Shown: positions 11,565-56,236 of the stretch, piece after piece
How positions within the stretch are numbered: the first letter of the stretch is position 1
How the letters are laid out: each line of letters opens with the position of its first letter
Made by a program: the position numbers and the translations under genes
The notes under the pieces: generated by a model
Told to the model about the DNA's origin: nothing
The model's database searches: none
The model's input: only the letters and a program-made list of their open reading frames with translations
Assembly: GCA_013115125.1 (NCBI GenBank)
Contig: JABANN010000016.1
Location: 1-64,000 of the forward strand
Reading direction: 5' to 3'
Source: Perkinsus olseni
Lineage: Eukaryota
Length of the DNA stretch: 64,000 nucleotides

Positions 11565-11740
11565 TAATTCCTGCATTCGATGCAAATCGGGCAGAGAACC
11601 AAACGTTGTTACTGCGTGAAGTCAGCGAAATTTGAGCATTGAGGAAATGCAAGTGAGCAAGATGACGTGCAAGTCGCAAGATTTGCTCCACCCACTCGTG
11701 CTGATCGTAGCAAGTCTCGTCGTCGTCCCTGCCTTGGTTC

Positions 11741-12190: not shown

Positions 12191-12423
12191 CTTCTCTTTT
12201 CCGCACTTTGTTTTAAGGCCTTCTGGCCCACCTCTTGTAGAGTGTTCCGTTCACTGTCATCGCCATTTCGCTGCGTTCCCAATGCACAGGAATCCAACAG
12301 GTCACAATTTGTGAGTCGCGCCTAGTGTCTGTCTCAGATGCATCACCGAACGCCGACGTCCGACGTGCGCCTGACCACCTCCCCTACTGACCAGGCCCAT
12401 TTTATCAAGCCCCTTTCACTCCA

Positions 12424-12945: not shown

Positions 12946-13117
12946 GTCTTCAAGTTGACATTACAGCATGACTGTTAGCGTACATGCCCCTCTGTTGAGA
13001 TAACTTGGTGAATTGGCGGGGTTGAGTTGACAATAATGTTAGTGGGCTGAAGATTCTTACTGGAGTATCTTAGGTTGATCATGGCGTTGCACGAGTTCCA
13101 GCTCAGTTCGGTTGCTC

Positions 13118-30581: not shown

Positions 30582-31454
30582 TTACTTAACAGCCGGGCCG
30601 GAAACTATGATGGAGTGGCCATCAGGATCGGTCATGTAGATCACCTCTTCGTCGTACCTGGAGTCCTTCTCAGCGCAGTACTCCTCCTTCAAGCGATTGA
30701 AGACATCCGCCTTCACCCTGACGCCGAATCCACGGTATCCGAGCTGATCACTCGGGCTCTCCTTAAGGCGGCCGAAGCGATGCTTCACTTGCAGCTCTAC
30801 TGAGGTGAAATTGCGAGACCACAACCACTCGCGGTTCTCAACGGCCCAAGGATCGGTCTTTGGGGGCTTTTCGGTCGTGTCCGCGAAAAAATGCAAGTCG
30901 AAAGCATCGCTGACGTACTGAGTAGAGAGCAGCTTCATACCCAGCATTTTGGTGTAAAACTCCTTGCTGCGCTTGGCGTTGGTCGCTCGGAGAGTCAATA
31001 GGCCAATACCCGCATCCTGGCCGAGTGGGCTCTTGTCGTCCTTGAAGGAAGCCGCGTACTCCTCGCTGAAATTCTTTTCGAATTGGTGCTGTATGAGCTC
31101 GATGTTGTATCCGATAGGATCTTCCGTGTGAGCTAGATACCCTACGTCCTTGAACTGAAAGGAACTGGATACAGGGACGCCCATTTTGGACAGCTTCTGG
31201 CGAGCGAGCTTGACGTGTGGCAAGTACAGGGAGATCTTCCAGTACAAGTCGTCATCGAGAGCACTGTACGTGGCTGCTGGATTTTCGTGGACCCTGAACT
31301 CGATGCCGGCAGCCTCAGGCTTCGATGGGTACCCGACGGTAGCCGAAGTAGAGGTCCTGCTCATCGTCACCATACCGAGACGGGTTCGATACCAATTGAT
31401 AGTTTGCTCTAGCTCAGCAGCACGAACCATGAGGATGACGAAACGCACGGACAT
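30582..31454 (-). CDS. Two-domain glyoxalase/VOC-family protein, intronless
   Basis: 290 aa with two VOC repeats (WYRTRLGM...DPIGYNIELI; FYTKMLGMKLL...DPDGHSI). Confidence 0.88.
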   Translation of the reverse strand: MSVRFVILMVRAAELEQTINWYRTRLGMVTMSRTSTSATVGYPSKPEAAGIEFRVHENPAATYSALDDDLYWKISLYLPHVKLARQKLSKMGVPVSSSFQFKDVGYLAHTEDPIGYNIELIQHQFEKNFSEEYAASFKDDKSPLGQDAGIGLLTLRATNAKRSKEFYTKMLGMKLLSTQYVSDAFDLHFFADTTEKPPKTDPWAVENREWLWSRNFTSVELQVKHRFGRLKESPSDQLGYRGFGVRVKADVFNRLKEEYCAEKDSRYDEEVIYMTDPDGHSIIVSGPAVK

Positions 31455-32122
31455 TTGTAGCGGTCGAAAGAGAAAGATTCGCTAAGTGAGACTCTCACTG
31501 TGAGAGTTGGCGGGGATTCGAGACAGAAAATGAGAAAAACGGGAGTGAGGGCGCTCCCAGTGATGAGAAAATGCTAACGGACGGCCAGCGCTTTTCGGGG
31601 AAATCTTAGACGAAGGGCAGGCAAAGCTGTGGAGATACAGAGCAAGTGCATCTTGTCGTTTTCACGACCCGTGTACGCGCGCGCATAATCATCGGGAGAC
31701 ACCGCCCTCAGGGCGGCTCCCAAATCCGATGGGACTAGTCTACGGACGAGTTGGCAGTTCGCTTCTCGGGAGAAAATCGAGGGAACACCGAAAATCGGTA
31801 ACAGCCTAGAAGAACATTGTTATAGAGACAGGACACGCCAGGTAGGAGCGGTAGCCGTACACCTGCCATCCACAGCGTCGGGTGCGAATGCTTCTGCCGA
31901 GGGGACAACGGCGTGAAATTACGACGTGACGCCACTCGTCAATCCGTCGTCCAGGCCAGCGTACGCCAAATCCGAAAGGAAAGAGTACAATTCATTCAGG
32001 AAGTCTCATGTGACCGGACACTTTAGACAACACCTCCCTGCCGTACTCAAAGGTTACTAGTGATAAGAAAGTTAGCAAACTTGACGCTGTGTCCATGGAT
32101 GGATGCCACAAAAGAGACCGGG

Positions 32123-33324: not shown

Positions 33325-36300
33325 TCAGGTAGAATGACTATCGCCACGGGCGAACGTATTGAAAATCTGCTCGAGGGTCGTCTGGGAGAGCTGAAAATCG
33401 TGCATCTCAAGCTCCTCCTTGGCATCAGCATCGGACAGCTCAGAGAAGATGGACCCCAAATCAATGTCGCGCGGAAGCGCAAATTCTCCAACTTCTTCCA
33501 AGGTTCGAGTCTCAGGAGACACATGTTGCATAAGCCACTGAAGAGCGTTCATGTGCTGGAGGGCTCGGGCCGCAGCAGAAGCCAAGGCGCCACGGTTGAA
33601 GGTTCTATTGAAAGTCTCGTCCAGTGTCCCAGCGGTCAACACACTATCGATCAGACGCTGCTCGCTGATGCCTGAGAGAGCATCAGAAAAATCATCGCAA
33701 CACGAAGCCGGATGAAGCTCACCGAGTCGTGTGAGTTGTGCCGTCAAATGAGTGTCTGTGAGGGTGACATACTCGCCATGCGCGGAGGTCTCCGCATCTT
33801 CCGCTGCCAGAATCTGCTTCATCGCGCGCTGCTTGTTCTCTTCGGAAGCATCTCGGAAGTGTATCCAAAGCCTGTACCCACGACCGTAGTCGGACTTGAT
33901 CTGTTGGGATGTCCCGATACAACGGAACTGTCCGTCAACCTACAGGAATGGAAATCATCACAGAATGGTGAGCAGCGAATCGTAGGTACCTGGATGACCA
34001 TCGTCTCACACACAGCATCGGCCTCCTCCATGCTGTGGGTAGTGAGTATAACCGCAGTATAAGTCTTAGAACGATCGTGAGCTATCTTATGGATCACATC
34101 CCAAATGCGTCTAAGTGGGGAGCAGGTCTCAGGCATGTGCCTAAGACCGATCGGCATCACCTTCTAGCCCCAGGGTCAACTCCCGTCGTCGGCTCGTCCA
34201 GGAATACTATGGGAGGATGCCCCACAAGAGCCATACCTACACACAACTTCCTTTGGTTGCCACCAGACAGCTTTACCGCCTCCTTGTCGATGTAGCGCCT
34301 GACGTCAACCGTCCGTTCTTCGTAGCAAAGCGCCGGCACAGACAGACTCACTCAAGCTGCAATATCTTGACCAGATCATCAACGTGCTGAGATATCCTGT
34401 TTGACGGTACTCCACGTATACGCGCGTACCTGAGGGTCAATCAGAAGCCGCCAGCGTCCTGAGCGACCTACAGGTAAAGATGGTCTTTTGCCGTAAGGCC
34501 TTGCAACAAGGGGCTTTGCTGTGGGCAGTATCCCACGGACTTCCGGACCTGGAGCCGAGACATACCACAAAAGGACCTAATCGTGTGGCACAGTCTTACC
34601 TCATACACGTTGCCCTGCAACGGTCGACCGACAAGATTGATGTGCCCAGCGCTCGGCCTTATCAACCCACAGAGCATCCTGAAGGTGGTGGTCTTGCCGG
34701 CACCATTTACTCCCAGTAGGCCGAAGACTCCACCATCAGCCAGGGCGTAATTGATGCCTCTCACCGCCCATACCTGATACATCATCATATGGCCGGACAC
34801 TTACACGTTTTAATGCACCCACCTCGCTATCTTTTCCTGGATAGAAGACCTTCTTGAGATCCTTGAAGTAGATCATCTGAGTTGTCGGGTCGAGCTTGGA
34901 TACTCTCTCCTTCTCCGCTATGACCCTCTCGTCCTCGACACCACATTTCTCCGGAGGAACAGCCAGGTCTCGATCAGGATTCCACTTGTCGTCATTCAGC
35001 TTGTAGTCCAAGAACAACAATAGACCGAAGTAGATGACCCCGTAGACAAACAGCATGATGACATCGTCACCGGCCACAAAGGCGCATACGTTGAAGGGAT
35101 TGCCGTTGATGTCGAAAACTGTGGTATCGTGACAGGTCCTCAGAATCTGTGAGTCGAAGGGCTTAGGGGTGAACGAGCCTGCTCCTGTGTTCTGTAGGCC
35201 AGTGAAGAAGATGGTGGTCAGGCCCTGCGCCACTGAGTAGGTTGGGAATACCCTCACAATCCACATCAAGATCAGTCCAGCAAGAGGCGAAATCCTAGCG
35301 AAGAACAGCACTGAGATGGCGAAGGAGCCAACCAAACCACCAAGGATTGACGAGGCTATCCTCATGTAAGTAGCGATCGTGCTAGTGCGCGCCACTACAC
35401 TGATGAGGTAATTGAACGGTGGGGTCGCGAAGCAGAAGCCGACCAGAAGAGCCCACACGGCAGCCTGGTTGTCCGGTTGGAGGTAGGTATTCACCTCGTA
35501 GACCCTTAGAGGGATGAAGGTGAGGCAAACGGCGATGAGGGAGAATAAGAAGTCGAAGACCCAGCTCGCTGTCCAGTACGGGAGCAGCCCGCAGCCGCTG
35601 ACATACAGCTGTTCTTTGATCTTCGTCGTCTTTTCCATCATCATGTAAGATAAGAGCGTCGAGGCCACAACCGTGAGAGCTATGGCGTAGAAGCCGCCCA
35701 CTGAGAAGGTGACCGCGAAGTTTGTGAGCGAGTTGGAGAACTGAGATGCCGTATGCGGGAGGGGGTGGTTGACAACGGTGAGGGGCTGATTTCCGGCCAA
35801 GGCGAACGGCGTCATGTGGAGAGCAGTCATATCAGCGAAGACAGACCTCGATGTGACACCCAATGCCGTCACCTCAAACCATGCAGTATCCTCGCCTAGC
35901 AGGGAGGCTGAGAACCTCAGGATACCCGCACACAGTGCGTTATTGAGGGTTGAGTTAGGCGGTGTGTTGGGCTCGTAGGGGATCGCATCGTAAGGCTTCA
36001 GTAGGGAACAAGCATGTACCTCAGCATTGGTCAGAGGCAGAGAGGCATCGATACTCGGCAAGGGTTGGCCGTTCCTCGCGACGGTGACAACGAAGGGATC
36101 CACCGTACTCCACTGGGCCACTATATGCTGACTCGGCCCCGCCTTGTAGGGGTTGGAGGACGGACGCAACGTCAAACTGGTCGCGTCCCCGATACTCACA
36201 GCCGTCTTCTGGAAACCCAATAGGACCAGGAGGACCACCATTGGTATGAGTAAAGCAGCGAGAGTGCCAACCCAGTTCCGATAGGCATACACCAGTCTTC

Positions 36301-39300
36301 TCATCAACAAGCCGCGGACTTGCTGCGAGAAGGTCGGTTTCAGCTCGATTTCGTAGGCGTCGTCGCCGAGGCCCTTGCCGATAGAGTCGGAACTTGGGCT
36401 AGAACGCCGAGCGACCTGAGGAGGATACCAATACACCCATACCGTACGCGAGCGAGAAGAAGTAGAGAAACCTCCGTGAGGTTGCTCAGAGCAGTGACTA
36501 GGACTGTGCTCAACGGAATCATTACTGCCCATAAACTAAGCTGACGGCTGAACCAGTGTTGTCAGTACAGCTGTACCGACGACAGGTCCGAGTCGCAGTA
36601 ACACGAGTATTCATACCATAAGGACACGATCACTCCATCGAGGGATCTCCGAGTAACCAAGCGAATGAAGCTGAACTTTAAACCTTAACCTCGGTCTAGC
36701 ACGGCGCTGTGTCACATGCTACTACCAATCACGGCGTCCAATCACCAACCGCTGAGCTGGACTCACGTTGAGGAAGACATCCTCCATGCTCGATATTGAT
36801 ATGCCGTACGAAGTTATCTGATCAGCGGACTTGCAGTCCTCGAGGCCCTCGAAGATCTTCGGGAAGCTCGAGGCACAACTATAAGGAACCTGGCAGAGAA
36901 AGTTGTAAGAGTGCCATCTCTTCGGATAACCACACCAACCTGTAGGGAGAGCTCCTGACCAGCACTTGACCGTACACGGACGGAGGAGGGGTCGTCGATA
37001 CTCTTCTGGACGACCTTGACAAGGGGTTCATCCGGAACCTTGGAGTCTTTCTTGGCGATGCTGAGGGTGTAACCCGTACCTGAGGTGATCATGATTAAGG
37101 GGTTGGGTGAAAGATACAACGAGCTCACCAAACTGCTGCTTGAGGAAGCTAGTAGTGCCGTACGCCATCAGTTTGCCATTCTCCATTATACCAACTCGAT
37201 CGGCTAAGACGTCTGCCTCGTCCATGTAGTGTGTGGTGATGCAGAGGATCCTTCCTTCACGCTTCGATCTCAAGAAGTCCCACATTCTACGCCGAGCGCT
37301 CGGGTCCATACCGCTACTCGGCTCGTCTAATATAACCAACTTGGAGTCGCCAACGAAGGCCAACCCGACCGACAGTTTCCTCTTCATACCACCTGAGGGA
37401 CGCACAGCTGATGAAGACACGACCGGAGCTTCTGAGTCTACCCGACAGAGTCTTCACTCGCGCCCCGAACTTATGCCCGAGTTCTATCTCAGTGGCAAAC
37501 TCAAGTGCCTTCTCATCACGACTTAGCCCACGAATATTGGCGAAGAGATTGAAGTGCTCCTCGACGGTGAGGTCGTCCCATAAGACGTCGTGTTGGGGGC
37601 AAACGCCCATGCTTCGGCGAATGACCGGCATCTCAGTCGGCACTTTATGACCGTAGACAGTCACTTCCTAACACAGAAGCTCAGCCTTATTCGGTTCACA
37701 GCAAGCGCACGGCCAACCTCACCCCGCTGCTCGGGACTAACATCCCACTGAGAACATTGATGGTGGTGGACTTGCCGGCACCATTGTGGCCGAGAAGGAC
37801 GAAGAGCTCATCCCGATACATGGTCAAATCCAGGCCGTCAACCGCACGGACTGACTTGAAATGCACCTGAATGGAAACCAACGATAATACGCAAGTCGTC
37901 GCCGACACAGGCAGTACCCTGAGGTCGTGTATTCCGATAGTGGCCTGCTCTCTCTCCAGCTCCTTCTGATACTCGCCAGAAACCTTCTCAATTCCATACT
38001 GCCGCTCGTCGTTCGAGCTGGTCCTTTCTTCTGACGACTGGTCACTCGAGCCCTGAGTTTCCCCGTCATCGGAGATATTTTGGCCTCGCATTTCCCTCCA
38101 GAATGAGCGGGTGAAAAGGAAGTAGAACTTCCGGCTGGACCGATACTCATGCGGGACGACTTGGTCCAGATAGAGGTAGACGGCGGTCCACAGGACAATG
38201 TCGACCAGGAGCATTATGAGACCTTGTATGAGGTTGAATTCCTCAAACTTCAGTGTGGACGAGGGGTTGGCCAGACCGAGGAAGACCTGCTGACCGAGGT
38301 TCTGCATGACTAGGGTATACGCACACTGCGGCAGCAGCGATACGGCCCACTTGTCGGTCTCTCGGTGGACGGCGACCAGGACGAACGATAGTATGTAGTA
38401 GATGACGGCTGTGAGGGTCGAACCCGAGTTGGGGTACTTGAACAGTGTCGAGACGGAGAAGGCGAAGGCCATCGATGCATAGAAGTAGAGGAAGGTGAGA
38501 AGGAAGAGCCACAGAGCTCCGAAGGGGGACAGGATCCCCAAAGACAGGAGAGCTACAGCAATAGCGAGAACAAAGTAGAATACGAAGTACCAGGCATACC
38601 ATGACAGGTTGTATGGGAGGTCATGAAGGCCCATGATGCGCATACCTGAAAGAAAGACTTTCCGTCGGAGGGATGGGAAAACAACAATAAGCGTACCTTC
38701 TCGCAGGCGGCCACGTCTCTCTGAGATGAGCTTCCTTGAAACCGAAAAAGCCGAAAATGTGAACAGAAGCGCTCCCACGATGCCAGAAAGCTGTTTCATA
38801 GTACCACCAGACCCACGCTCCTTGTACGAAGGGTAGGGCATCGGGTAGAGCGCGGCGACGGGCACGTCCGAGCTTCTAAGATAGTCCATCCAAGTAGCCA
38901 TGAGCAGGGGGAAGTCCAGGGTATCGTAGTAATCCAGACCGTTGTCTATCGGATCGCCGTGCTGGTAGTCGCCGTTTTCCGCGTACCAGTAGCGCGTATA
39001 ATCGCTGTAGTCGTCGGAAGCCCCGGTGGTCGCGTTGCTCCTTATGGTCACTTCATTCTCCTTCCCTACGTCCATGTAGTAGCAGATCTCTGGATGGCTA
39101 TCGGAGCCGTACGCAGGAGACTTGACGTAGGCCGATGGATCAGATATTGAGGTGGTCAGGCTCAACAGCGGCGCCCCGCCGCATGTACCAACGCTACCGG
39201 CAGCACCAATACGTCCGCGCAGATAGCTGGCGAAGGCCTCTGCTCGCTGTGACCCCGAAGGACCGATGGCTAAAGTACCACACAGGCACTTATCAACTAA

Positions 39301-39693
39301 AAGGATCAAGTTGGACTGGCGGAAGAAGGTCGAGTAGGGGACCAGGCCTGATAGACTGAGGGACGAGTAGAGCTGCCGGGCCTCATCCGCGTACGAGGTG
39401 GTGCCGACCCGCAGGTCAGGACCTGAGCCGCCCGGGTTCACTGGGTTGTCGGCAGCAGGCTGAAAGGGAAACTCACAGTCAAGTCGACCGACGAATGAGA
39501 CACGTCAGACGACTGCGCTCACCATTGTTTTCAAGACGTTCCCATTTGTGTTGGCGAAGGGTGGTATAAGCAGCGCAGCGATGGCCACGATGAGCGGTAG
39601 GAGAATTTCGCAGCACACTGTGAGTTTGGACCGACGGGACAGAATAAAGTTCTTCTTAGTGAGCGCCCCAATCTGAGCAGTATCGAGACTCAT
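33325..39693 (-). CDS. Full-length ABC transporter subfamily A, copy 1
   Basis: TMD-NBD-TMD-NBD layout. [74 protein letters not shown]-terminal SQTTLEQIF. Confidence 0.95.
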
Positions 39694-41486: not shown

Positions 41487-44400
41487 TTACATTATAGAAG
41501 GATCGCCTTGAGCGAACCTATTGAATATTTGCTCAAGGGTCGTCTGCGATAACTGAAAGTCGTTAAAGCAGAGTTCCTCTTTTACTTTGGAATCAGACAA
41601 CTTAGAGAAAACTTGACCAAGATTAATGGTACGAGGCAGACTGAATTCCCCAATCTCTCCTAGGCTTTCGCACTCGGGAGATATGACGGAATGCAACCAC
41701 TGGAGAACTCTCGTGTGAAGAGCACCGCCAGTGACCGCCGCGGCCAACGCCGAGGCAGTGAATATACGTGTATTATCGTTCTCATTCAAGGTACCAGTGT
41801 TCACGATACTCTGGACGACACGAGGCTCCGTAATACCTGTCAAAGCGTCCTGTGGGCAGCGAGACGAGAAGGAGTAACTTCCTTACCGAGCGCACCGAGT
41901 GAGGCTCGGAGTTCTTCATCGGTCAGTGTCAGCCGGCCATATCTGTCACTTTTCAGAGCGTCCTCGAGGACTGAGAAATTCTGGAGGAGCTCGGCACTCG
42001 AGGCAGGCGACAGCTCGGTGAACGATATCCACAGCTTGAAGCCCTGGCCGTAGTCCGTCTTGATCTGCTGGGAAGATCCGATACAGCGGAACTGGCCATC
42101 CACCTGAGCCACAGAATAATGAGAAATACAGTGAATGAAAGACTAGTGCACACTCACCTGGATGACCATAGTTTCACACAGAGCATCCGCCTCTTCCATG
42201 CTGTGGGTAGTAAGCACCACGGCAGACGACTTCAACCGTCCGTGAGCGATCTTGTGGATAACATCCCAAATGCGTCTATGGACGAGGGTTAATGCGATAG
42301 CAGATACAACAAAAACCACCACAAGCGACCTACCTTCGAGCATCGGGGTCAACACCGGTAGTCGGCTCGTCTAGGAAGACCAGGGAAGGATGCCCAACCA
42401 AGGCAATGCCAACACATAGCTTCCGCTGGTTACCACCAGACAGCCTGGTCGCCATCTTGTCAACGTAGCGCCTGAAAAAGGCACGTAGGTCGAATATGAA
42501 GAATACTGAGAGAAACGTATCCTACTCAAGTTGGAGAATCTTCAACAACTCCGATATATGATCTTTCAGTACAGTAGATGATACCCCCCGAATTCGTCCG
42601 TACCTACAAGACGAGGAAAAATGACATTCGGGCGACTTACGGTCGATGCATCTTACAACAAAAGGTGCTCCTCGGTAGTGAGCCCTTCTAACAAAGGGCT
42701 ATCCTGTGGGCAGTACCCGATGTTCTTACGTACCTGAAGGGAGTGTGAGCACCAAACTACGCGTATTCACTCGGCAGATAGAGAGACAGAGACTCGATCT
42801 TTACCTCATAGATGTTCCCAAGGAGCGGCTGTCCGACAAGATTGATGTGCCCAGCACTCGGCCTTATCAACCCACAGAGCATCCTGAAGGTGGTGGTCTT
42901 GCCGGCACCATTTACTCCCAGTAGGCCGAAGACTCCACCATCAGCCAGGGCGTAATTGATGCCTCTCACCGCCCATACCTGATACATCATCATGCGGTCA
43001 GACACTCAGTTGTAAGCCGCTTACATCGTTCTTCTTCCCTGGGTTGTAGACTTTTTTGAGATCCTTGAAGTAGATCATCTGAGTTGTCGGGTCGAGCTTG
43101 GATACTCTCTCCTTTTCCGCTATAACCCTCTCATCCTCCACACCACGCTTCTCCGGAGGAACGGGCAGGTCTCGATTCGGGTCCCACTTGTCGTCATTCA
43201 TCTTGTAGTCAATAAGGATAGTCAGACCAAAGTAGATCACCCCGAAAAGGAAGAGCATGATGACATCATCACCAGCCACGGCTAAGCACGTATCGAAGGT
43301 CTTATCGTCGATGCCCTCGAGCTGCACCTCGCTGCACGTGTTCAGAATCTGCGAGTCGAATGGGTTACTCTCAACTCGCTCGCCCGAAGGGTCATTCAGG
43401 AACCCCAAATCCGTGAAGAAGATGCTCGTTAAGGCTTGCGCGACTGGGAAGGTAGGCACCACTCTGAAGATCCACATCAGAGCGAGACCGATGCCGGGAG
43501 CCACGACTCCGTAATACAAGATAGCCACTACGAACGAACCAATCAAGCCGCACCCAACACCTGACCCGACCTGGATGTAAGTAGCGATAGTGTTGGTTCG
43601 TGAGATGAGGGAGACGAGGTAGTTGAAGGGGGGCATGGCGAAGCAGAATCCGATAAGTAGGGTCCATACAGCACCCATATTCGAAGGCTCCAGGTACGCT
43701 TCGATGTCGAAAATAACCAGCGGAATCCACGTCGGGCAGATAGCGATGAAAGTGATGACGAAATCGAAAGTCCAGCTTGATACCCAATAGGTAAGCAGGC
43801 CACATCCGCTGACGTAAAACTGCTCCTTGATGCCTCTCGTCTTTTCCATCATTATGTAAGACAGCAACGAACCAGCAACCACCGTGAGAGCTATCGCGAA
43901 GTAGCCTCCGACAGCCAGAGTGAGGACGAGGTTGCTTCGAGACTTGCTGTTCTGGTAGGCGGTATGCGGGAAGGGGTAGTTGATCACACCAGGCGACTCG
44001 TCCCCCGCCAAGGCGAACGGCGTCATGTGGAGAGCAGTCATATCAGCGAAGACAGACCTCGAGGTGACACCCAATGCCGTCACCTCAAACCATGCAGTAT
44101 CCTCGCCTAGCAGGGAGGCTGAGAACCTCAGGATACCCGCACACAAGTTCAGATTCATAGGAGGATCTTCGGAGGGTATCATCTTGTACGGCTGCCACTG
44201 ATTACAAGCCGTGAATTCATCCGGTGTCAACGGAGTGGCCGCGCTGATGTCTGGCAAGTCCTCCGAGCCCCTCTGGACTCTAACGACCTCAGGATCGCTC
44301 AAGTCCCATCGGCCGATGATATGGTCCTGCTGGTAAACGTCATAAGGAGTAGAGTCACCCCACCTCAGCCCGAGTCGTCGAGCATCGAACACCGTCACAC

Positions 44401-47400
44401 CGAGGTACTGCAGACCCATGAGGACGAGTATGACGAGAAACGGGATGAGCAGAACCGCGAGAGTGCCTCCCCAATTGCGCCGAGAGTACGTCAGACGCCT
44501 CGCCATGAGACCGAAGAACTGCTGCATCGAGTTGGGCTTCACAGACAGATCATACATCCCCTCGCGCTCCTCAGTCGTGTACGTACGACTCTTCAGTCTT
44601 GACATTTGCTCATCATCGCCGTGAGAACGCCGGGCAACCTAACAGAAAATAAAGGAAATGCCGTGGCGTGTGTTAACGGGAATCCCCTGTCATAACCTGT
44701 GAGACTTACATTGAGGAAAACGTCTTCCATCGTGGTTACGGATATGCCGTACGACGAAATGTCCTGCTGAGCCTTTACCTCTTCAAGGCCTTCGAAAATA
44801 AATGGGAGCTGAGGGGCATTCTCGAAAGGAATCTGACAGGATATCCGTGAGCTGTCATGGAGACGAACGGGCGTTCTCGAAGTAGACATAAGGACGTGAA
44901 ACTACCTGTAGGGAGAGTTCCTGACCAGCACTCGACCGTACACGGACGGAGGAGGGATCATCGATACTCTTCTGAACGACGTCAATGAGGAGACCATCGG
45001 GCACGGTGGAGTCCTTCTTGGCGATGCTTAGCGTGTAACCCGTACCTGAGGAGTTCACAATAGAAAGGCGGAGCGGAGGAAGAAAGAAACTCACCAAACT
45101 GTTGCTTGAGGAAGCTAGTAGTGCCGTACGCCATCAGTTTGCCATTCTCCATTATACCAACTCGATCGGCTAAGACGTCTGCCTCGTCCATGTAGTGTGT
45201 GGTGATGCAGAGGATCCTTCCTTCACGCTTCGATCTCAAGAAGTCCCACATTCTACGCCGAGCGCTCGGGTCCATACCGCTACTCGGCTCGTCTAATATA
45301 ACCAACTTGGAGTCGCCAACGAAGGCCAACCCGACCGACAGTTTCCTCTTCATACCACCTGAGGGACGCACAGATGATGAAGACACGACCGGAGCTTCTT
45401 CTGAGTCTACCCGACAGAGTCTTCACTCGCGCCCCGAACTTATGCCCGAGTTCAATCTCAGTGGCAAACTCCATAGCGAACTTGTCAGTGGGTAAGCCTC
45501 GGATATTGGCGAAAAGCTCGAAGTGCTCAGACACAGTAAGATCGTCCCACAACACATTGTTCTGCGGACAGATACCCATACTCCGTCTGATGGCAGGCAT
45601 CTCGGCTGGCACCTCCTTATTGAAGATACTAACGGCCTGAGACGAGTACAAAATATCGAAACCAAAAGAATTGAACCCCGTCATTCTTACCCCACTCTTC
45701 GGCCTCAACATCCCACTGAGGACATTGATGGTGGTGGATTTGCCAGCTCCATTGTGACCGAGGAGGACGAAGAGTTCATCCCGATACATGGTCAAATCCA
45801 GGCCGTCAACCGCACGGAAGTTGCCAAACTCGACCTGAGCAGACAAGCCGTGATAGCATATCCGACACAGACTTGCTCCTCACCTTGAGATCTCTTATCC
45901 GAACCACTTGGCCATCACGTTCCAGCTTGCCTTGCAGCTCGCCCTTAGGCTTCTCTATTCCCTCGTCCATGGTGACACTACTTACTTCGGAGGGTACAGT
46001 ATCCGTAGTCAAACCACGGGACTGACTCTCGTCATCATCCTTACCGGCTATCTCTCGCCAGAAGCTTCGGGTGAACAGGAAATAGAACTTGCGGGTCGCT
46101 CGGTACTCATGAGGGACAACTTGATCGAGATAGAGGTACAGCAGAGTCCACAATATGAAGTCGACGATAAGCATGACCAACCCCTGCACCAGAGTGAAAT
46201 CCCGGTAGGCTAGGGTGGCCGAGGGCGTCTCCTTGCCCAGATAAAGTTGCTGACCGAGGTTCTGGACGATGAGAGTGAACGCGCACTGAGGAAGCAGGCT
46301 GATGGCCCACTTGCTCGTCTCACGCTCGATCACAGAGACCGTGATAGCGAGCACATAGTAGATGACCGCGGTGAGCGTCGAGCCGGAATTGGGGTTTTCG
46401 AACAGTGTCGAAACCGCAAAGGCAAACGACATCGAGGCGAAGAAGTATAGCAGCGATAGCAGGAAGAGCCAAAGCGCGCTGACGATCGGGAGGATGACCA
46501 ACGATAGCGCCGCGACGACGAAGGAGAATACAAGGTAGAAGGACACATACCAGAGGTACCACGAGAGGTTATACGGTAGGTCGTAGAGGCCCATGATGCG
46601 CATACCTGAGAGACTTTTCGTCGTCACAATTTACAATGTCCCGCCCAACTTACCCTCTCGAAGCCTCCCCTTCCTTTCTGAGATGAGCTTCCTCGCGACG
46701 GAGAAAGCAGAGAAAGTGTACAGAAACGGCCCGAGAACATTCCCGAGCAAAATGAGGTCGCTTCCCGAACTCCGAGTTTGATAGCTGCTGTAAGGCATCG
46801 GATAGACACCGGCAATCGGCCTATTGTCTCCTCGTTGATAGTCCATCCATGCTCCCATGAAGGCCGGAAAGTTCAAAGCCTCGTAATACACCAGGCCGTT
46901 GTCATCCGGGTCGCCGTGCTGAATGTCACCGTTCTCTCCGTACCAAAATCTGTTGTATTCACTGTAGTCGACGCTGATAGCCTTAAAGCGACCACTATCA
47001 CCAATGGTAGCATTGGACATTATCAGTAGCTCGAAGGGGTTAAAGACATCCATGTAGCCGCAGAGCTCGGGAACCCCTATTGAGCCGTAGTCAGACCGAC
47101 GGACATACTCTCGGGGATCGTCAATCGATGTAGACACAGTTATCGTTGGGAACCCATCGCACTGGGGCAGGTTGAACCCCTTGAAGATCGACTCGAAATT
47201 GTCGTTCAGATAGGTAGCGAAATTCTCGGCCTGTCTCGTTCCAGCCGGTCCGATGGCCAAAGTCTGACAGGCACAAGTTAGCAGCACCGTGACAGAGTTG
47301 GACTTGTTGAAAAAGTCCTCGTAGGGAGTCAACGCTTCCAACTGAGGGTAGTCATCATAGGCCTTTCGCAGGCCAGAAGCATAGAACAGCGATCCATTCC

Positions 47401-47652
47401 TCTGACCACCCCAGGACGTGTATGGGTAATCAGCGTCGGGCTGAGAGGGGAAAACACAGGTATGCACAGAGAGTGATTCGACTCAAAACTTACGAAGGTC
47501 TCCAGGTCACGTGAACTGGGATTCACCAGAGGGGCGACAACAAAGCAAACCACAGCCACAAACAGCGGCAGTAGGATCTCGCAACATACGGTGATCTTAG
47601 ATCTCCGCGAGAGTATGAAATTTTTCTTCGACAGCGCAAATATCTGAGACAT
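41487..47652 (-). CDS. Full-length ABC transporter subfamily A, copy 2
   Basis: Same motifs and exon structure as copy 1. Starts [12 protein letters not shown] and ends [20 protein letters not shown]. Confidence 0.95.
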
Positions 47653-48529
47653 AGCAGAGCTTTCCTCGCGAATGACTACCAGCCGGCCTCCTCAGTGGAC
47701 TATTAATATGCGAAAGACATCCTCGTGATCGAACGGAATGAGCATCAAGTCAAAACGAGCAGTCAACCGCAGTGAGGGTGCCTCACCTGCTTGCGCAGCA
47801 GCCCCTTAGTGGGGCTCGACTCAGATCCTGCAGTCGTTGCTGCAGCCATGCACAAGATAACAAAACTGCGGAAATATCACCTCCGACGTTAACAGCATCA
47901 CAGGCCTAGCTGACGAGTACTACGGTAAATCTTTCCTCAGTTTCGATAGTCGTCCCTACCGTTGCGCAGTTTCGCAGTGCACGCAAGCGCAAGCACGCAC
48001 GCGTAACTGCCAGAAATAAACTGAGCCATTTCAGCGTTCGGCGTACCACTCCATGACGGAATATTAGACACTGGCGAATCAGACCCCCACTCAGCGGTTG
48101 AGCAGTAACCACTCGCGGAGGTGTGCTAGGGAGTAAGGCTTTCCTAGGCTAGTGGGTCAACCTTGAGCATTGAAGCACTCTGCGCTACACAAATCTTCGT
48201 TGGGGGACACGATCTGACACAATACAGATACGGGATGCCAGACTACCCGGGCACAGGGAATCTTAGTTGCGACAGACTGTAACCCAATAGCCACCTGGGA
48301 GCACTCGCACTGAAAGGCGATGGGAATAGAGCTCCCTAAGTAAGGCTCCGAAAGGCGCAGGAGCCTGTTGGAGCGAAAGTGCTAAGCGACTGAGCTGAAC
48401 CATGCCTCGCGATAATTCTCGGACTCGCACCGCTTGATAGTTCCTTCATTTGTCGAGTCGGATAAGAAGCCTCGGGACTGCTTTTGGGTATGATCGCTCC
48501 TCAGGCAGCGTTCGTCTCATCTTTACCAC

Positions 48530-51500
48530 CCCATGCTGTGGTTATGGATGATCTTCTCAGAGGAGGGGCATCTACGCGTCCCGACGCTCAAGAATCATCT
48601 GCTCCAAAACAATGATTTCACCAAGGCGTTTTTCTACGAAGATCACCTGCCGCCTTACCAGCGCCTGAAGTGGTAAGAAGGTGTGACCGACATGATCGAA
48701 CAAGAAAAGTCGCGCCACGATTTAACTACGTATTGACCTTGCCCATTCGTTGAACTGGTAACGAAGGATATCCGTTATGCGTTCTTCGAGCTTCGACCTC
48801 GGATTCGCCCCACGGGCCGATGAAGGTACCAGCGTGCAGCAAGGCTTGCCTGTTACTTCCTTCTCCTACTAACTGTATCCGCGAGGATGGCAACCTTGGG
48901 GTTACAGGCTGAGAGCTCTGCGCTAGAGCCCAGAGCCGCGTGCCGAGAAGCTTGCGAAGAGGTAACCGTTCGCAAGTCATTCGCGAGAACTTCCGATCAC
49001 GATTGTGTACCAATGATCGCTCCATTCTGTGTGATTCGGGGCGGTCACAAGAACCGTTGCACAGGCCCACTACCCCTTCGGATCTCTCTGCAAAGATCTA
49101 GAGGATCTCTTCGCTGTCACAATCACCCGCCACGGCAACCAGTATGATAGACTCTTCTACTTCCCGGCACCTCCAGAAGACTGCGCAGGGGACCCCGAGA
49201 ACTGCCCAGCTTATGCTGTCTACCTTCAGTGGTGAGCAAACCATGGTTCCTTCACGCAGGGCTGGTTGACAGCCACTTGGGACATCGACACCTTGTGGTT
49301 AGAGCGATCTCGAAAGCCTAGCTCGAACTCTCCATAATCAAGTCACTTACTAGCGTCCGGAAAAATGCCACTACTAGTGGCAGCACGGTTGTGACTCTGA
49401 ACCGACCAGAGCGTCTAAACATCCACGAGTGTTTCAGCCGTCTGGAAAGGACACGGCATACCATTCTTCCTGCTTTCAGTCGAGCATTCGTCGATGCTCC
49501 GTCTTCCAGTAAGGATATTATCTTATCGGATGGAAGTAGCAGGAAACAGCGCCATGAGATCTGTTTCAACGCCTGCCGTAGGCCAGGCAATGATACGGAG
49601 GAAGTAGGGCGTCCAACCTTCCGCACACTCAAAGTATTGCGGTGATTCAGAATGGCTTCATCGGTCTTGACACTCGGCCCCTATGCGCAGCCAATTCTGA
49701 TACCGCTGACCTCCTCTGTGTTTCCTTCGACGACGGGTGAGCAGCCTCGGTTCCCACACAGTCCGACAACAGTGCCGCGAAGCGATGGCATAGGTATGAG
49801 TCACAGCTCGTGTTCTATGGCGGGTACACGTGCTTTTCTGGTGGCCACGAGGACAGCCGCTTCGAACGGGGGTGCACCAGCTGGAGCCTTGTGAGTGCAT
49901 GCGGCTCCTAGTGCCGCCCGTCTGAGCCTCGGACTCGGTGGAGCTCAGAAGGTCCCTTGCAGTTATGGCTGGGAATCCTCATCGCCAACGTCATCCAAGC
50001 AATCACAGAAATGATGATATTCTACGTCACCGGCCTGGTCGAGGATATTCGAGTATATTCCGAAGCTCGAAATAAATGCCTTGGTCACAGCGCCCTCACG
50101 GTAAAGCTGTCTCCTCCTGGCCAATGACTTTTTCGTATCAGCCACTAGCACCGTGTCGGCGTGGCATGCAGCACGTTACATCAGGCGGGTCGACAATTAT
50201 TCGTGCGTTGGCTGAAATTGCTCTACTAACCGCGCCCGTGCAGGTGTACTTTCTTGCGATCATAATATTGCTGTTTCAACCGCTGCAAATCGCCGAGACA
50301 ACTGGACGTGGTCTCGATGTCCTCGTCACAGTAGCTCTAAGCCTCCTCATGGACCAAGTAAACCTACCTCGCCCTTTTATTCCGTGTTCCGAAGCTTAAG
50401 GTATGCGCTGTTAGGCAAAAAGCTTTGTTGTACAGCCAGTCATTTGGTGGGTGCTGATAAGAAGGTGAGACAAGGTCCGTCCGAGACGAGGGCTGTTTCG
50501 ATGAATTGTGAGACCTCCCGGAACTACTAGGGATCCTCGCGTGAAAGGCGCCAGCTCGGGGTGGTTATCGCGCTTGGTCTCAGATGCGGGACCATTTTCC
50601 CCGGAATACAGGAGTATAACGAAGAATATCTCCTCCAGTGGGACCTGCAGGATTCCCTGGTGAACCCCTCCTTCTTGGCGGCTCGTGGTGCCGACCTTCA
50701 GACTAGGTGATGAGCGCCCGTATGAAAGTTCAGCTGTTCTTCGAGACCAAGAGGGTCACGCTTGCTACCAACTATCTCGTCGGCGGCTACGCTATTCTCA
50801 TACTGAGCCAGCTGGCAACGCAAGATTACTGGGAAGGCGTCACAGTTATCGAGAATATTTACAAGTGAGCGACCACCGTATCCATGCTCGAGAGCGATGC
50901 CAGATGGACCGACTTCGCCACGGTCTGCATCTTCATGGTGGAGATCACCTTCAAGACTTTCGCCTACTGGGTGCAATTCTGGATGGACCCTTGGAACTTC
51001 GTCGACAACATCGTGGTCATAGCGAGCTTCATCGTGGCCAGTGAGCTGCCCCTGAAGATTCCCCATAATCACTGATTAGCGTGCCTCAGTCATGGCTGCT
51101 GAGATGAAGGGGCTGGGTCTCCTCCGGCTACTCAAGTTGCTCAGAATCATTGTCGTTATCCGCAAGGCGATGAGATGAGATATCAGCCTGTTAAGTCAGA
51201 CTGCGCCGCGCTTTCAGGTCTCAGAAGGCCGGAAAAAACTGAAGGATTTGAAGACTAAGTCTGCGGTCACCGTGGGCTCCTACGTGGACAAAGTAGGCAC
51301 CGCTCAAAGGAGATGGCCGATGCCTCGACAGGTCGTGGCTAGGTGTTGGAGCTGATAGAGGAGCTGCAGACAGCTAAGTATCTGCCACCACACCTTAAGG
51401 ATGATTTAGATTGGGTTAAAGTGGGACCTGATGATTTACAAGAGTCGCCCCACCAGCTCGGTTAGGACGTTATTGTGTGCAACAAGCTGTATGAGGTCAG

Positions 51501-53528
51501 CATTGACGCGGACACAACAGAAGCCAACAGCGTGAGCATCGAAGCAGCGCGCCGGAAACCAACTGAGCATTGTTTCGTGCATGTCCGTCTCTCAGGATGG
51601 TACTGGCAACAGCGATGAGATGACAGCGTGGATAACGGCAGCGAACGGTGCGCCCGTGAAATCGAAGGACGGCATGAAGGTGGACCAGATCAACGCTGCA
51701 CCTAGCCAGAATATGTCGCTTGGCGATCGAACTTGCGCCCATCAGTGCCGCTCGTGAGGGAAATCTGCGGCGTGTTGTCAGGAGGACGTGCCTGCTTATG
51801 GTGGTCGAGTCCAAACCGAAATGCGGAAAGGTCGCGAGACGAGAGCCTGTAGGTTGAAGCCTCATCGCCTTATAGTTTAATAAGGAGGAGGAATGGCATG
51901 GTCATTCATTCTTGCAGACCGGGAAAGTCAAGCCCGACGAGAAAGCCGTTACAAGGTGACCATGCCCCTCATTGAGTGAAGCTCGGCGCTATCGCCCTTC
52001 TAGACACGCAGCCAGAGCCGGAGACAATCGAGCCAGAATCGAGAGTCCCAGGACAATGCGCGCCATATGAACGCCTACCTCTACAAGATGGGTAACCTCA
52101 CACCCGGTGAGGTGAGTGCTGTTGCTTGGACACGAAATTGCAAAGCTTTCTCCACGTATTTTTCCGGCTCAGCAACAGCAAATAGAGTCAGCACTGAGTA
52201 CGATCGACAGTTGGAGATTCGACGTTTTCCAGACGGCAGAGGTGAGCCTCCTCGAGGAATCCTCGCGCTGGAGCAGATAAGTCAGATCCTCGAAGGAAAT
52301 TTGCTGCCAATACTCTTCGGCAAGATGATGATCGCCTACGACTTAGTCGATATCCTATCGCTCGACTTCGAGATCGTCTTCGCCTACGCGAGCAAGGTGG
52401 GTTCGCTGCCCCCGGCCGCGCAAGCCCGGCGGGCGCGCAAGCCCAATTCGTGTCCATCGCCAGGTTCAAGAGTCCTTCCACCCGCAAGTGCAGTTCCATA
52501 ACGCTGCTCATACTGCGGACACGATCCAGGCGATACACATCATGTACTGCCAGGGGAGGGTCCAAGACAACTTGAACCACCTCGAGAGGTCAGCTAAGGA
52601 GAGCACGCAGAATGGCGTCCGATTGGCAGCCGTTGTGGTTAGGTTTGCTCTGCTATTCTCTGCTCTCACTTGTCACATGCGGCATCCCGGTCTGACGAAC
52701 GACTTTCTGGTGAAGGCTCGGACGCCGGAGGTGTGCTGGTGGGGGTTTTGCCCTACTGGAGTCCTCTCTCTCGAGGCAATACGCTACAACGACATAGCAG
52801 TACTACAGCATTGCCATCTGGCCCACGCCTTCGGGCTTCTCGAGGATCCCGAGCTCAACTTTCTGCTCAACGTGGAGTCGGAGATAGCGGTGGGCCACGT
52901 TTCGGCGGCAACCCTCTGGTCGAGTCCCTTCGAAGCAGACGCAGCTGAGGAAGCTCGTTATTCACATGGTCCTTCGCCTGGACATCAGTCGCCATATGAC
53001 GGAGATTACTAATCTCACCAGCGCCATGGCTTCCGAGTCGTTTCCTAGCAGAGTACGCCCGAGCCTGTCTCGGAGCCGAGCTATCCTCGGTTTTCAGGAG
53101 GAAGATATAATGCTGTTGCTGTCGGTGTCCTTGAGGGTGGCCGATGTGTCCTGGGCGTGCAGACCCCAGCAGATCTATGGTCGATGGGCGGAGAAGTTCC
53201 TGGAGGAGCTATATGTGCAGGGGGACCTAGAGAAGGTTTGGAATCCAGTTAGGTGGGGAATGGCGTTCTCCTTTTCTCAGGTCATGGGGCGCCCAGTGTC
53301 GCCCTTCTGCGACAGGGATGCTGTCCAGTCCACCCGCACGGAGCTCGCCTACGCCTACGTCATGGTGTCACCACTGATCAACGCTTACACAGTGCTCTAT
53401 GAGGGTACTACTAGGGAAGAGGCAGAGCCGGACGAGTCCATACTGCAGGTCTGATCACCTCCTGGGTGGAAGAGGGACTAGAGCCCAACAAGCAGGCTTT
53501 GCGTGATAAGATCGGTTTGACTGCGTAG
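48530..53528 (+). CDS. Multi-TM + voltage-sensor domain + class I cyclic-nucleotide phosphodiesterase-like domain (5' end uncertain)
   Basis: S2 IFMVEITFK, S3 DPWNFVD, S4 LLRLLKLLRIIVVIRK. PDE motifs FHNAAH, HPGLTNDFLV, AIRYND, VADVS and EELYVQGDLEK..G.PVSPFCDR. Confidence 0.85.
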
Positions 53529-53550
53529 GCCAGCATGTCCACCGTGCGTT

Positions 53551-55590
53551 CTAGGTTTCGCCGGCGGGCCGCCTTTCGAGTTGAAAGCCTAGAAGTACCA
53601 GAAAGCTTGACGATACTGTGGGGAGAAGAAAATTAACGAATCTGCGTTCGAAACCATCAGACGATACCGCACGCGAAGGAGCAACCACGAGGTTCGCTCT
53701 CGAATGAGCTAGTGGTTGATCAAGACGACCTAGCATGTACTCTTGTAAGCCCTTCCGAACTCACTGAACCAAAGACAAACGCCGCCAAAAAATGCTAACG
53801 CTCGTAAAATTTTCGTCACGGTCGCAGAGAGCCCGAAGGCGCCACCAACATGGCTCGGTTTTTTCTTTCGCGCCGTGCAATCGCACGAACCCAATCATGC
53901 TCTGGCAAGGGGGAACGGGCTCCTCACCTGAGAATAGTGGAACACCTTGCGCGTCTCCGCATGAGATCCGCCCCACCTCGAAATTCTCGCTGAGCTCTCT
54001 CACCGACTCGCTGTCCGACGATGCCTCAGTCACCGCAGAGATGAGCCAAGGACGGGCGTCCGCTATGATGACTGCTGAGACGGGCCGCTGGATGCCGGCT
54101 ATGTGCCCTGACACTAGTGCTCTGAATGCCGACGTCCCGAGAAGGCGAGGGGCATGCTGACGAATGAGTCGCAGGACAGCGACGAGCTCCTCCCTGTCAC
54201 CGATAGAAGACGCTGTTGCCCAGACTGGAGCATCAACCTCAAGCTTCAGCCGATCGGACGAGAAGCCGAAAATGAGTTCCTCTTTCGTCATCACTACAGC
54301 AACGATGACACCCTGTGAAGTAACAGAGCCGGCCAGCTCGTGGACGGCAGACTGCAGCGCGGACACCTCTTCGAGAGAGCGAAGTTTGCCCTCTAGAGAC
54401 AACAGGACAACGTCATCACTCGAGTCCTTGAAAAGGAACTTCTTCCCACCCATGCAGTCCCCGAGCGTTTCTAGGTGCCGGAATGCTGACTCGGGCGAGA
54501 CCGCAATTTCAGAGTCCGAGTTGGGGGGCACCTCTGGGAGAGGAGTTCTCTCATCATCAAAACAGTGCAGCAAATGGGCGATGCTTCTGAAGCGCGCGAG
54601 CCGGTCAAGACTGGCCTCCAACTCGGGCTGGCTCAATGGCGGACGAGTCCGGAATGTCGACAAGTAGGGGAGGCAGGAGGACCGATGCAGGATGGTAAAT
54701 CTACCGTCGGTTGTCGGCATCCTAGTGGATCGATCGGTCGGCACAACAGAAGATCGCGGCGGGATGATTTCAGGACAATCAGTGCTTCGGTACCATCGCG
54801 AGCCTTGAATAGAGAACCATTCGACGCACTGAGGTTCGGTGCCGCCCAGAACGAGGAGACAGTCGCTAGACGCCGCTGATCCCACCAGGGAGTGCCGCTT
54901 CACGTGATAGATGCTGTGGCTTGCCCGAGGTATTGAACGGACGACCGAGCCGAGGTCAACTCGGCTGCACCAGCCCCGCCGGAAAGAGCTTGAGAGAGTG
55001 ATCCGCCAAAGGTCGTTCAAGGGCATGTTGTGTTGGCCAAGCCCTCCGTGCAGGTAGACGTCGTTGCTGCCAACCGCACACACCGCCACGCGACACGCTG
55101 GATTGGGTAGAGATCCGTCGCCGCTCTCCAACTGGACTCGGCGCCATTTGCCCTTCAAGCCCTCTTTACGGCGTTTCAACTCCAACACCCACATGAAATC
55201 CTCAACGAGCTGAGAGGTCGGTGAGGTACCACCAAAGATCGCCACGCGAACTGTACCAGCGTCCTCCTCGGGAGCCAGCGCAACGGCGGCGTGATGAGAC
55301 CTAGGGGAAGGGGCTTTCCCATCGACCGCGACCAAGCTCCACAGATGCTCTCGCTTGCCGTGGACAGCATCTATCCAAACCTCGAAGGGCTGCCCTCCCT
55401 CACTATGCGGTGCCCCAACAGCCCCTACGAATACGACCTCAGACCTGCCTGGCACCCGAACGACGGAAGGATGGTGCCGGAATTTGGGCGGCTTCGGTGA
55501 TTCCGCTGTCGGGGCTAAGGCCTCCCACCTGTACACGGCATACGGTGGAGGCCCTTCTCCGGAAGAGGGCTCAGGCGGCGTTTCGCTCAT
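53551..55590 (-). CDS. Kelch-repeat protein with a C-terminal domain possibly related to the MORC GHKL ATPase
   Basis: PSPRSHHAAV, IFGG, VYLHGG...LNDLW, PRASHS and LLVLGG Kelch motifs within a 656-codon ORF. The last exon is uncertain. Confidence 0.75.
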
Positions 55591-55599
55591 TCGCAAGAA

Positions 55600-56236
55600 G
55601 ATACGGAATGTCCGCAAGCCTTGGTTGTACTCGCGACTCTGTCGTCTAGCAGCCCTAGTTCTGGTCGAAGGACCCCTGGTCACCCCGTGAACAAGAACCT
55701 CAGCATGATCCAAGGCCACCAAGGAAATCAACCCATCGCCGTCGAGAATCTGAAGACAGTGAATGACTCTTGTCGATGCGATGGCTCTATACGGAATATA
55801 TAATGCTCATACTCTCACAGCCTTTCGTCGAGAAAGTTGAGTTGAGGCTGACCGAATGTTATGGTACCGAGTGTAGTGCGTCCATGGCGCTGGAAATTTT
55901 GGAGATACAACAGCGACATCCGACGAGCCGGTCTGCATTGCGAGAAGTTCTCTAAGACCCGGCTGAACAGACAGGCCGACAACACTATCGAGTCTCCTTT
56001 CCGCCGTACTGAGTTGCGTTTATAGCTGCCCCAGCTGAAACGAACCTCACCCCTACTACCGCTTGCAACTCCTCCGCATGCTTCAGGTAGCTGGTGTCCA
56101 CCCGTGACCGCTCGGCATCTAGCAGTAGCCCTGGCCCTACCACCGGCAGCCTGGCGGGGGCCAATCGCCTCCTCTTTCGAGATTCGTGCTCCTCAAGGAA
56201 TTGGTGAAGGAAAATCGGCCCGTCTTCAAGCGACAT
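55600..56236 (-). CDS. Short hypothetical gene, or 5' exons of the Kelch gene
   Basis: MSLEDGPIFLHQFLEEHESRKRRR... (NLS-like). Downstream exons splice into the same frame as the Kelch ORF. Confidence 0.45.

Follow-up and report, generated by a model that had tools for sequence, protein, structure and literature searches.

A predicted Perkinsus olseni gene joining a pore-less voltage-sensor domain to a phosphodiesterase fold with an altered metal site

To our knowledge, the voltage-sensing phosphatases (VSPs) are the only enzyme family established as being driven directly by a voltage sensor. In a VSP, a PTEN-like phosphatase and a C2 domain follow the voltage-sensor domain (VSD). Two other membrane proteins are similar in part. 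The rhodopsin-phosphodiesterase of Salpingoeca rosetta joins a membrane sensor to a class I phosphodiesterase (PDE), and this PDE is active; its sensor is a light-driven rhodopsin and not a VSD. In the sperm Na+/H+ exchanger SLC9C1, a VSD regulates a non-channel effector, which is a transporter with a cyclic-nucleotide-binding domain and not a PDE fold. Here we describe a gene at 48533..53528 on the plus strand of a 64,000-nucleotide (nt) stretch of Perkinsus olseni DNA (assembly GCA_013115125.1, contig JABANN010000016.1, positions 1 to 64,000), referred to below as the window. With a probability of roughly 0.6, it is one gene encoding a multi-pass, pore-less VSD-PDE protein with a voltage-driven sensor, the output of which is probably not ordinary hydrolysis of cyclic AMP or cyclic GMP (cAMP or cGMP).

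PDEs of Toxoplasma have been described in related terms. In the available portions of these papers, Moss et al. 2022 reported portions of PF00520 in TgPDE4 and TgPDE16 (PMC8809380), and Vo et al. reported many catalytic signature substitutions in TgPDE4 and no tachyzoite expression (PMC7720076). A 2023 review, likewise in its available portions, assigned TgPDE4 and TgPDE16 to clade B, grouped them with PDEs of free-living alveolates, gave their expression as restricted to cat stages and named Perkinsus marinus among the taxa in the legend of its Fig. 1 (PMC10865986). Within the same portions, the Toxoplasma PDE papers termed the domain 'ion transport' and nowhere interpreted it as an isolated voltage sensor, and the apicomplexan PDE papers treated cyclic-nucleotide signalling as controlling parasite motility. 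Judged by these descriptions, TgPDE4 and TgPDE16 resemble the window protein in having a C-terminal PDEase_I domain and a partial PF00520 among transmembrane (TM) helices, and TgPDE4 also resembles it in the many substitutions of its catalytic signature. A literature search, thin on subscription journals, found no paper on a VSD-PDE fusion or a voltage-controlled phosphodiesterase. The VSD-PDE fusion is not new as an architecture; it is an annotated family that is functionally unstudied, and the window gene is a new member of it.

When the last PDE open reading frame (ORF) of the gene was used as query, three proteins were found at E <= 1e-5 among 501 candidates, all of them from Perkinsus: P0001 and P0002 (partial, P. 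olseni) and P0003 (P. chesapeaki). All three are automated gene predictions. To build the gene model, P0002 was aligned to the window by tblastn, and splice sites were then sought around every gap. The window has a G+C content of about 53% and is eukaryotic DNA with short introns. A single frame was uninterrupted for 1002 codons, beginning at 48503 and ending with the TAG at 53526-53528. The introns of the gene measured 39-248 nt, most of them 44-72 nt, and 27 were GT-AG while one (51167-51217) was GC-AG. The spliced product was 97.5% identical to P0002 over 972 amino acids (aa) with zero gaps, and 69-81% identical to P0003. These identities by themselves assign the window to Perkinsus, and most probably to P. 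olseni or a species very close to it. Residue numbers are counted from the ATG at 48533; the numbering of P0002, the protein used for the AlphaFold model, is 10 higher. The coding region and its sensor, linker and effector parts were as follows.

48533..53528, plus strand: whole coding region, 29 exons and 28 introns, about 992 aa (spliced alignment to P0002)
50749..50820, plus strand: S1, residues 391-414 (hydropathy, AlphaFold, structure search)
50842..50967, plus strand: S2, residues 422-450, with D432, F439, E442 and K446 (Pfam Ion_trans; spans the 39-nt intron 50865-50903)
50971..51091, plus strand: S3, residues 452-475, with D457, W-N and D463 (Pfam Ion_trans; spans the 49-nt intron 51041-51089)
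51113..51259, plus strand: S4 and basic linker, one helix, residues 483-514, with R487, K490, R493, R499 and K500 (spans the GC-AG intron 51167-51217)
51281..51477, plus strand: two conserved linker helices, residues 522-555 (alignment of relatives, AlphaFold)
51496..52015, plus strand: charged spacer of low confidence, probably disordered, residues 562-640 (model confidence)
52025..53388, plus strand: class I PDE fold, residues 644-961 (Pfam, phmmer against PDB, structure search, site mapping)
52671..52676, plus strand: C784-H785, in place of the class I H-D pair (residue-level alignment to solved PDEs, column analysis)

The sensor of the Perkinsus gene is complete and pore-less. The canonical motifs listed in an earlier, sequence-only reading of this DNA were all recovered in the spliced exons: F439-x2-E442-x3-K446 (50932-50955, plus strand) for F-x2-E-x3-K in S2, W-N-x2-D463 (to 51006) for WN-x2-D in S3, and R487-x2-K490-x2-R493-x5-R499-K500 (51125-51166) for the basic pattern of S4. 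S4 has three or more basic residues at every third position (R487, K490 and R493, then R499 and K500), and the fourth every-third position is the hydrophobic V496. The charge-transfer centre of voltage sensors is formed by an aromatic and an acidic residue in S2 and an Asp in S3, which in the window protein are F439, E442 and D463, respectively. Thirteen raw ORF pieces of the window were scanned against Pfam, of which three matched (one Ion_trans, two PDEase_I) and 10 had no match. The S2-S3 ORF at 50869-51075 matched Ion_trans (PF00520) with an E value of 6.8e-07 and 29.2 bits (cut-off 25), and the ORFs at 52347-53012 and 52888-53454 matched PDEase_I (PF00233) with E values of 3.6e-14 and 2e-17 and scores of 53.5 and 64.1 bits, respectively. 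P0002 scored 42.3 bits for Ion_trans, over profile positions 32-113 of 241, and 180.2 bits for PDEase_I, and P0003 scored both domains too. The search with hidden Markov models (HMMs) that had been proposed as a check on the fusion found both domains on raw ORFs and in P0002.

Comparison with solved structures also pointed to a VSD. The 149-aa S1-S4 part of P0002 was run by phmmer against PDB and matched VSDs of Nav and Cav channels at 1e-12 to 1e-8, the mouse Hv1 chimera 3wkv at 1e-8, Ci-VSP (4g80) at 9e-6 and Hv1 (5oqk) at 1e-5. The AlphaFold model of P0002 was made with 80 aligned sequences and had a predicted local distance difference test score (pLDDT) of 85.3 and a predicted template-modelling score (pTM) of 0.61; it was used instead of an initial run with 8 sequences, which was poor (pLDDT 50.1). 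A structure search with model residues 385-512 returned Cav1.2 (Z 14.3, root-mean-square deviation (rmsd) 2.2 Å, 119 residues), Ci-VSP (Z 14.2, rmsd 2.0 Å, 122 of 136 residues) and Nav1.7 (Z 14.0), and the VSD model further aligned with CatSper, TPC and KCNQ sensors. SLC9C1 (8pcz) matched at Z 13.1 but with an rmsd of 14.4 Å. Because helical bundles may reach about Z 13 through arrangement alone, which the Z of about 14 for the VSD barely exceeds, the VSD call leans mostly on sequence evidence.

Pore elements were looked for between the VSD and the PDE fold, and the statement of the sequence-only reading that no S5-pore-S6 follows S4 held: no S5-pore-S6 is assigned because no hydrophobic segment was found from S4 to the PDE fold by hydropathy, and none was present in the AlphaFold model. 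The architecture of a voltage-gated cation channel was accordingly not found, and the Ion_trans match of P0002 stops by profile position 113 of 241. Proton channels of the Hv1 type have an acidic selectivity residue in the middle of S1; no Asp or Glu was found anywhere in S1 of the window protein (residues 391-414). S4 continues into the basic linker as one unbroken helix (493-524 in P0002 numbering, AlphaFold), which confirmed that it runs into a basic helical linker, and the junction residues agree with the ORFs of relatives. In the spacer, pLDDT fell below 50 at P0002 residues 572-588, 599-632 and 641-650. The window protein is like Ci-VSP in having a pore-less VSD N-terminal to a cytosolic enzyme fold and an S4 that leads into a basic linker. 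It differs from Ci-VSP in its effector, which is a PDE fold and not a PTEN-like phosphatase with C2, in the ectodomain and four TM helices that precede its VSD, and in the disordered spacer of about 80 residues between linker and effector. No VSP-type effector was found, PDEase_I being the sole cytosolic Pfam family in P0002.

The cytosolic domain has the fold of a class I PDE. By phmmer against PDB, the PDE region matched a solved PDE with an E value of 1.5e-43, and the model aligned with PDE4D2 at Z 37.9 (rmsd 1.5 Å over 295 residues) and with the PDE of the Salpingoeca rosetta rhodopsin-PDE (5vyd) at Z 33.3. Structure prediction, which had been suggested as a further check, recovered both halves, the VSD bundle (Ci-VSP, Z 14.2) and the PDE fold (PDE4D2, Z 37.9). 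The claim of a class I PDE domain stands for the fold, by Pfam, PDB and Z 37.9, but not for a canonical metal site. In the PDB alignment, C-H-M-R-H-P-G of the query lies opposite H-D-V-D-H-P-G. The available text of the 2023 review gives the class I signature as H-D-[LIVMFY]-x-H-x-[AG]-x(2)-[NQ]-x-[LIVMFY] (PMC10865986). The window reads C-H-M-R-H-P-G-L-T-N-D-F and fails at signature positions 1-2, and the remainder fits. A catalytic centre of His, His, His, Asp, His and Asp was named for TgPDE8 by Vo et al., in the available part of that paper (PMC7720076). These six positions are H744, H748, C784, H785, H788 and D895 in the window, and four of the six are kept (H744, H748, H788 and D895). 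Three other conserved positions, obtained from the alignment and labelled E230, T271 and Q369, which we take to be PDE4D residue numbers, are Q, L and E in the window and E, T and Q in canonical rows. Because H-D reads C-H and these three positions are changed, the window protein is probably not a canonical hydrolase.

Relatives of the gene were collected with a profile of 8 proteins (alignment A1), which was run against 1.84 billion representatives and matched 22010 proteins at E <= 0.001. Both PF00520 and PF00233 were above the Pfam cut-offs in 58 of the best 150 of these matches (34 of 52, 24 of 72 and 0 of 26 in the batches scanned); one further match had Ion_trans below the cut-off, and the rest were PDE-only proteins or fragments. 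In the both-domain matches among the best 150, Ion_trans ends by profile position 132 of 241, i.e., at S4. Members of the family include Chromera velia Cvel_9186, Oxyrrhis marina, Protocruzia adherens, Platysulcus tardus, Amoebophrya, Cystoisospora suis, Besnoitia besnoiti, Rhytidocystis pertsovi and Chrysochromulina tobinii. Family proteins in GenBank or UniProt include those from Perkinsus, Chromera, Amoebophrya, Besnoitia and Cystoisospora, and all of these score both Pfam domains except for the partial Amoebophrya A120 protein P0008. A homologue search with alignment A2, which was swamped by channel candidates, gave 7 matches and no Toxoplasma protein among them.

At least seven transcript-derived ORFs carried both domains (P0013, P0015, P0027, P0037, P0048, P0049 and P0066), and several of the two-domain transcript ORFs were labelled 'ORF type:complete'. 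Among the sources of complete ones are Chromera, Oxyrrhis, a ciliate and a stramenopile; both domains are likewise present in a protein from a haptophyte genome. These ORFs are the strongest available evidence that sensor and PDE lie on one mRNA. A merger of two neighbouring genes by gene prediction, one for a VSD membrane protein and one for a PDE, is very improbable. It would fit the lack of RNA evidence from this organism, the automated origin of P0001-P0003 and the disordered spacer of about 80 residues that parts the halves, but the complete transcript ORFs of relatives cover both domains, and the linker and spacer exons hold frame without a stop through 9 introns, with the linker conserved across the family. 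The fusion architecture first proposed from sequence (isolated VSD, basic helical linker and class I PDE fold in one gene, and no pore) was upheld, with support from the relatives' complete transcript ORFs.

Two or three PDEase_I domains per protein and no VSD were observed in P0035, P0045, P0046, P0057 and P0064, and likewise in P0082, P0084, P0118, P0127 and P0148; P0057 (2922 aa) also has many GAF domains.

The metal site was then followed through the family with local HMMs built from A1, which gave 172 PDE-domain rows in 155 proteins, classed by metal tetrad as follows.

Rows from VSD-bearing proteins: canonical H-H-D-D 51, degenerate 19, incomplete 8
Rows from proteins without a VSD match: canonical H-H-D-D 71, degenerate 16, incomplete 7

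A maximum-likelihood tree (LG+G4) of 95 PDE rows, with support by the Shimodaira-Hasegawa-like approximate likelihood ratio test (SH-aLRT) only, contained all VSD rows that were at least 80% filled and 30 non-VSD rows, with P0001 and second domains dropped. The window fell in a 20-row clade with a support of 100, made up of 14 VSD-bearing rows, all degenerate at the metal tetrad, and 6 short fragments. Cystoisospora P0017 lies inside this clade, which adjoins a set of long forms whose sites are canonical (P0016, P0018, P0024 and the Chromera group). The lost H-D positions within the clade read C-H, A-H, A-Y, M-Y or S-W, and the surrounding fold residues are invariant; the H-C-H-D pattern recurs in Perkinsus, in Cystoisospora P0017 and in P0022. 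As in the window protein, the site is degenerate in the coccidian members Cystoisospora suis P0017 and Besnoitia besnoiti P0040. The canonical VSD-PDE fusions of Chromera velia (Cvel_9186), Oxyrrhis marina, Protocruzia adherens, Platysulcus tardus and Chrysochromulina tobinii, which come from the same HMM search as the relatives of the window, have the same VSD-linker-PDE order and keep the H-H-D-D tetrad, and many canonical fusions are short (about 600-750 aa) and have no ectodomain.

An active, voltage-regulated PDE, in which S4 switches real hydrolysis of cAMP or cGMP and membrane potential sets cyclic-nucleotide levels, appears unlikely for the Perkinsus protein. Such activity would be consistent with the intact fold (Z 37.9; 180 bits in P0002), with the four of six catalytic-centre positions that are kept and the metal-binding residue types at the two changed ones, and with the canonical tetrad in sister long forms (for example, Chromera P0023) and in 51 VSD rows. 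However, the bridging Asp of the H-D pair is lost, signature positions 1-2 do not fit class I, and E230, T271 and Q369, as labelled above, have become Q, L and E. The two positions of the H-D pair also vary freely across the clade, which is unexpected under selection for catalysis. The many signature substitutions in TgPDE4 given in the available part of Vo et al. (PMC7720076) argue in the same direction. The coupling of membrane potential to cyclic-nucleotide signalling that the sequence-only reading had suggested is supported in its architecture, but the active PDE assumed in it is not, since H-D reads C-H, three more positions are changed and the whole clade is degenerate. A link from voltage to hydrolysis is doubtful for the Perkinsus copy as judged by its residues.

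Upstream of the VSD, the gene encodes further membrane and extracellular parts, listed below.

48845..48901, plus strand: N-terminal membrane anchor TM0, residues 54-72 (hydropathy peak 1.64; helix 57-79 in the P0002 model)
48902..49881, plus strand: ectodomain, Cys-rich and beta-rich, residues about 73-247, 12 Cys, interrupted by introns (Cys positions, AlphaFold strands)
49882..50584, plus strand: three TM helices before the VSD, residues 248-274, 282-315 and 319-351 (hydropathy, AlphaFold)
50600..50629, plus strand: cytosolic motif P-G-I-Q-E-Y-N-E-x-Y before S1, residues 357-366 (alignment A1)

The extra TM helices that had been noted at 49960-50460 are real. In P0002 numbering they span 258-284, 292-325 and 329-361 (AlphaFold), and the third is a single long helix. 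With this helix counted once, the ectodomain lies outside and the PDE fold in the cytosol. Nine of the 10 positions of P-G-I-Q-E-Y-N-E-x-Y were invariant in the 8 proteins of alignment A1, and the ninth position was E, D or K. Pfam found no family in the ectodomain or in the upstream TM region, and an Atlas search with the N-terminal 385 residues gave no usable match. The earlier list of domains was right for VSD, linker and PDE and incomplete in that a membrane anchor and a Cys-rich ectodomain are also encoded. In P0011 (eukprot g3205.t1, 1249 aa), a Cupin_8 (JmjC-like) domain is joined to the same ectodomain-TM-VSD module, and the protein ends within S4.

The large conserved Cys-rich ectodomain and the three extra TM helices would suit a membrane-bound, PDE-like receptor driven by its ectodomain, in which the S1-S4 bundle has lost voltage sensing and is a mere membrane anchor or assembly module; the hydrophobic V496 at the fourth every-third position of S4 would also suit it. 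We regard this as improbable. Over 83 VSD rows, the S2 columns, with a residue in 77 rows, had F in 73 and E in 74, the S3 column, filled in 78 rows, had Asp in 77, and the S4 charges were found in 64 rows (R1), 73 rows (R2, R or K) and 72 rows (R3). The charge-transfer centre and three S4 charges are therefore each kept in at least 64 of about 77 filled rows from distant lineages, which points to selection on a sensing function.

In the proposed mechanism, which follows that of the voltage-sensing phosphatases, S4 would move with membrane potential, and the linker would transmit this movement to the cytosolic domain. In the clade of the window, the cytosolic domain is less likely to be an ordinary cAMP or cGMP hydrolase than a pseudo-PDE, whose binding of nucleotide or of a partner would be controlled by voltage, or a hydrolase whose metal site is altered. 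We infer, with less certainty, that it does not hydrolyse cyclic nucleotides in the usual way and would serve as a binding or scaffolding module instead. A wider and tentative proposal, which we consider possible but speculative, is that, next to the VSPs, the VSD-PDE fusions of alveolates, stramenopiles and haptophytes are a second class of enzymes that nature has put under voltage control. Canonical members would turn membrane potential directly into breakdown of cAMP or cGMP. The long-form clade of Perkinsus, coccidia and Amoebophrya would have branched off as pseudo-enzymes; their sensor would control a non-hydrolysing, nucleotide-binding PDE fold, or would itself receive feedback from that fold.

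Several points weigh against reading the gene as a voltage-driven sensor with a non-hydrolytic output. Conserved VSD hallmarks are no proof of voltage sensing, and the site may be an altered but working metal centre, as Cys and His can bind zinc and H-C-H-D recurs in P0017 and P0022. With a pTM of 0.61 and a disordered spacer, the AlphaFold model is silent on coupling between VSD and PDE. The case for a single mRNA is one of homology, since no transcript spanning the gene was observed in this organism. The start codon is only inferred, and the gene model requires one GC-AG intron and one 39-nt intron (50865-50903).

A PDE fold stands behind a well-conserved, pore-less sensor in many protists, including parasites of shellfish (Perkinsus), dinoflagellates (Amoebophrya) and mammals (coccidia). 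If the sensor works, the family links membrane potential to cyclic-nucleotide signalling. For the Perkinsus copy, whose catalytic metal pair is replaced, the case is less direct; even so, this copy gives a natural basis for comparing active-looking with degenerate members of one family.

The sequence-only reading had placed the start of the gene at 50700, and this was not borne out; the gene begins about 2.2 kb further upstream. The probable start codon is the ATG at 48533, placed there because P0006 and P0009 begin two residues ahead of the matching W. In-frame TGA codons at 50866-50868 and 51176-51178 were considered as sense codons. This reading was rejected, since each of them falls within an intron whose boundaries are good and the ORFs of relatives show no insertion at these points. 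A GT donor at 51155 was likewise considered, but the GC donor at 51167 was preferred, because use of the GT would lose I-R-K, which is kept ahead of V-S-E-G-R-K-K in the ORFs of relatives.

A sequencing run (X1), guessed to be RNA with a word share of 0.14, gave 8 pieces on 48500-55000. At least four of these, of 151-195 nt and a depth of 2.4-4.3, lie on the gene (51041-51235, 52391-52559, 53004-53179 and 53268-53418). These four follow the genome without a break through predicted introns, and no joint was placed on the gene; they bear neither way on its expression or splicing. The neighbouring gene lies tail-to-tail with the PDE gene and is a Kelch-repeat ORF at 53761-55806 on the minus strand (681 aa, Kelch_KLHDC2_KLHL20_DRC7, E 7e-14). 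A 2137-nt X1 contig over this neighbour, with a depth of 141.5, skips 53925-53973, a GT..AG intron of 49 nt on the minus strand, and an intron of 49 nt is thereby directly confirmed in this organism.

Other ORFs were observed elsewhere in the window. Neighbouring sets of ABC-transporter ORFs (ABC2_membrane_3, ABC_tran) at 34739-39504 and 43001-47482, both on the minus strand, share near-identical peptide stretches, as if an ABCA-type gene had been duplicated in tandem. At 11711-13720 on the plus strand, three ORFs of 159-214 aa follow one another, have similar hydrophobic starts and may be a tandem family; Pfam gave no match for the two of them that were searched. An ORF at 30585-31481 on the minus strand carries a Glyoxalase/dioxygenase superfamily domain (E 1.4e-08).

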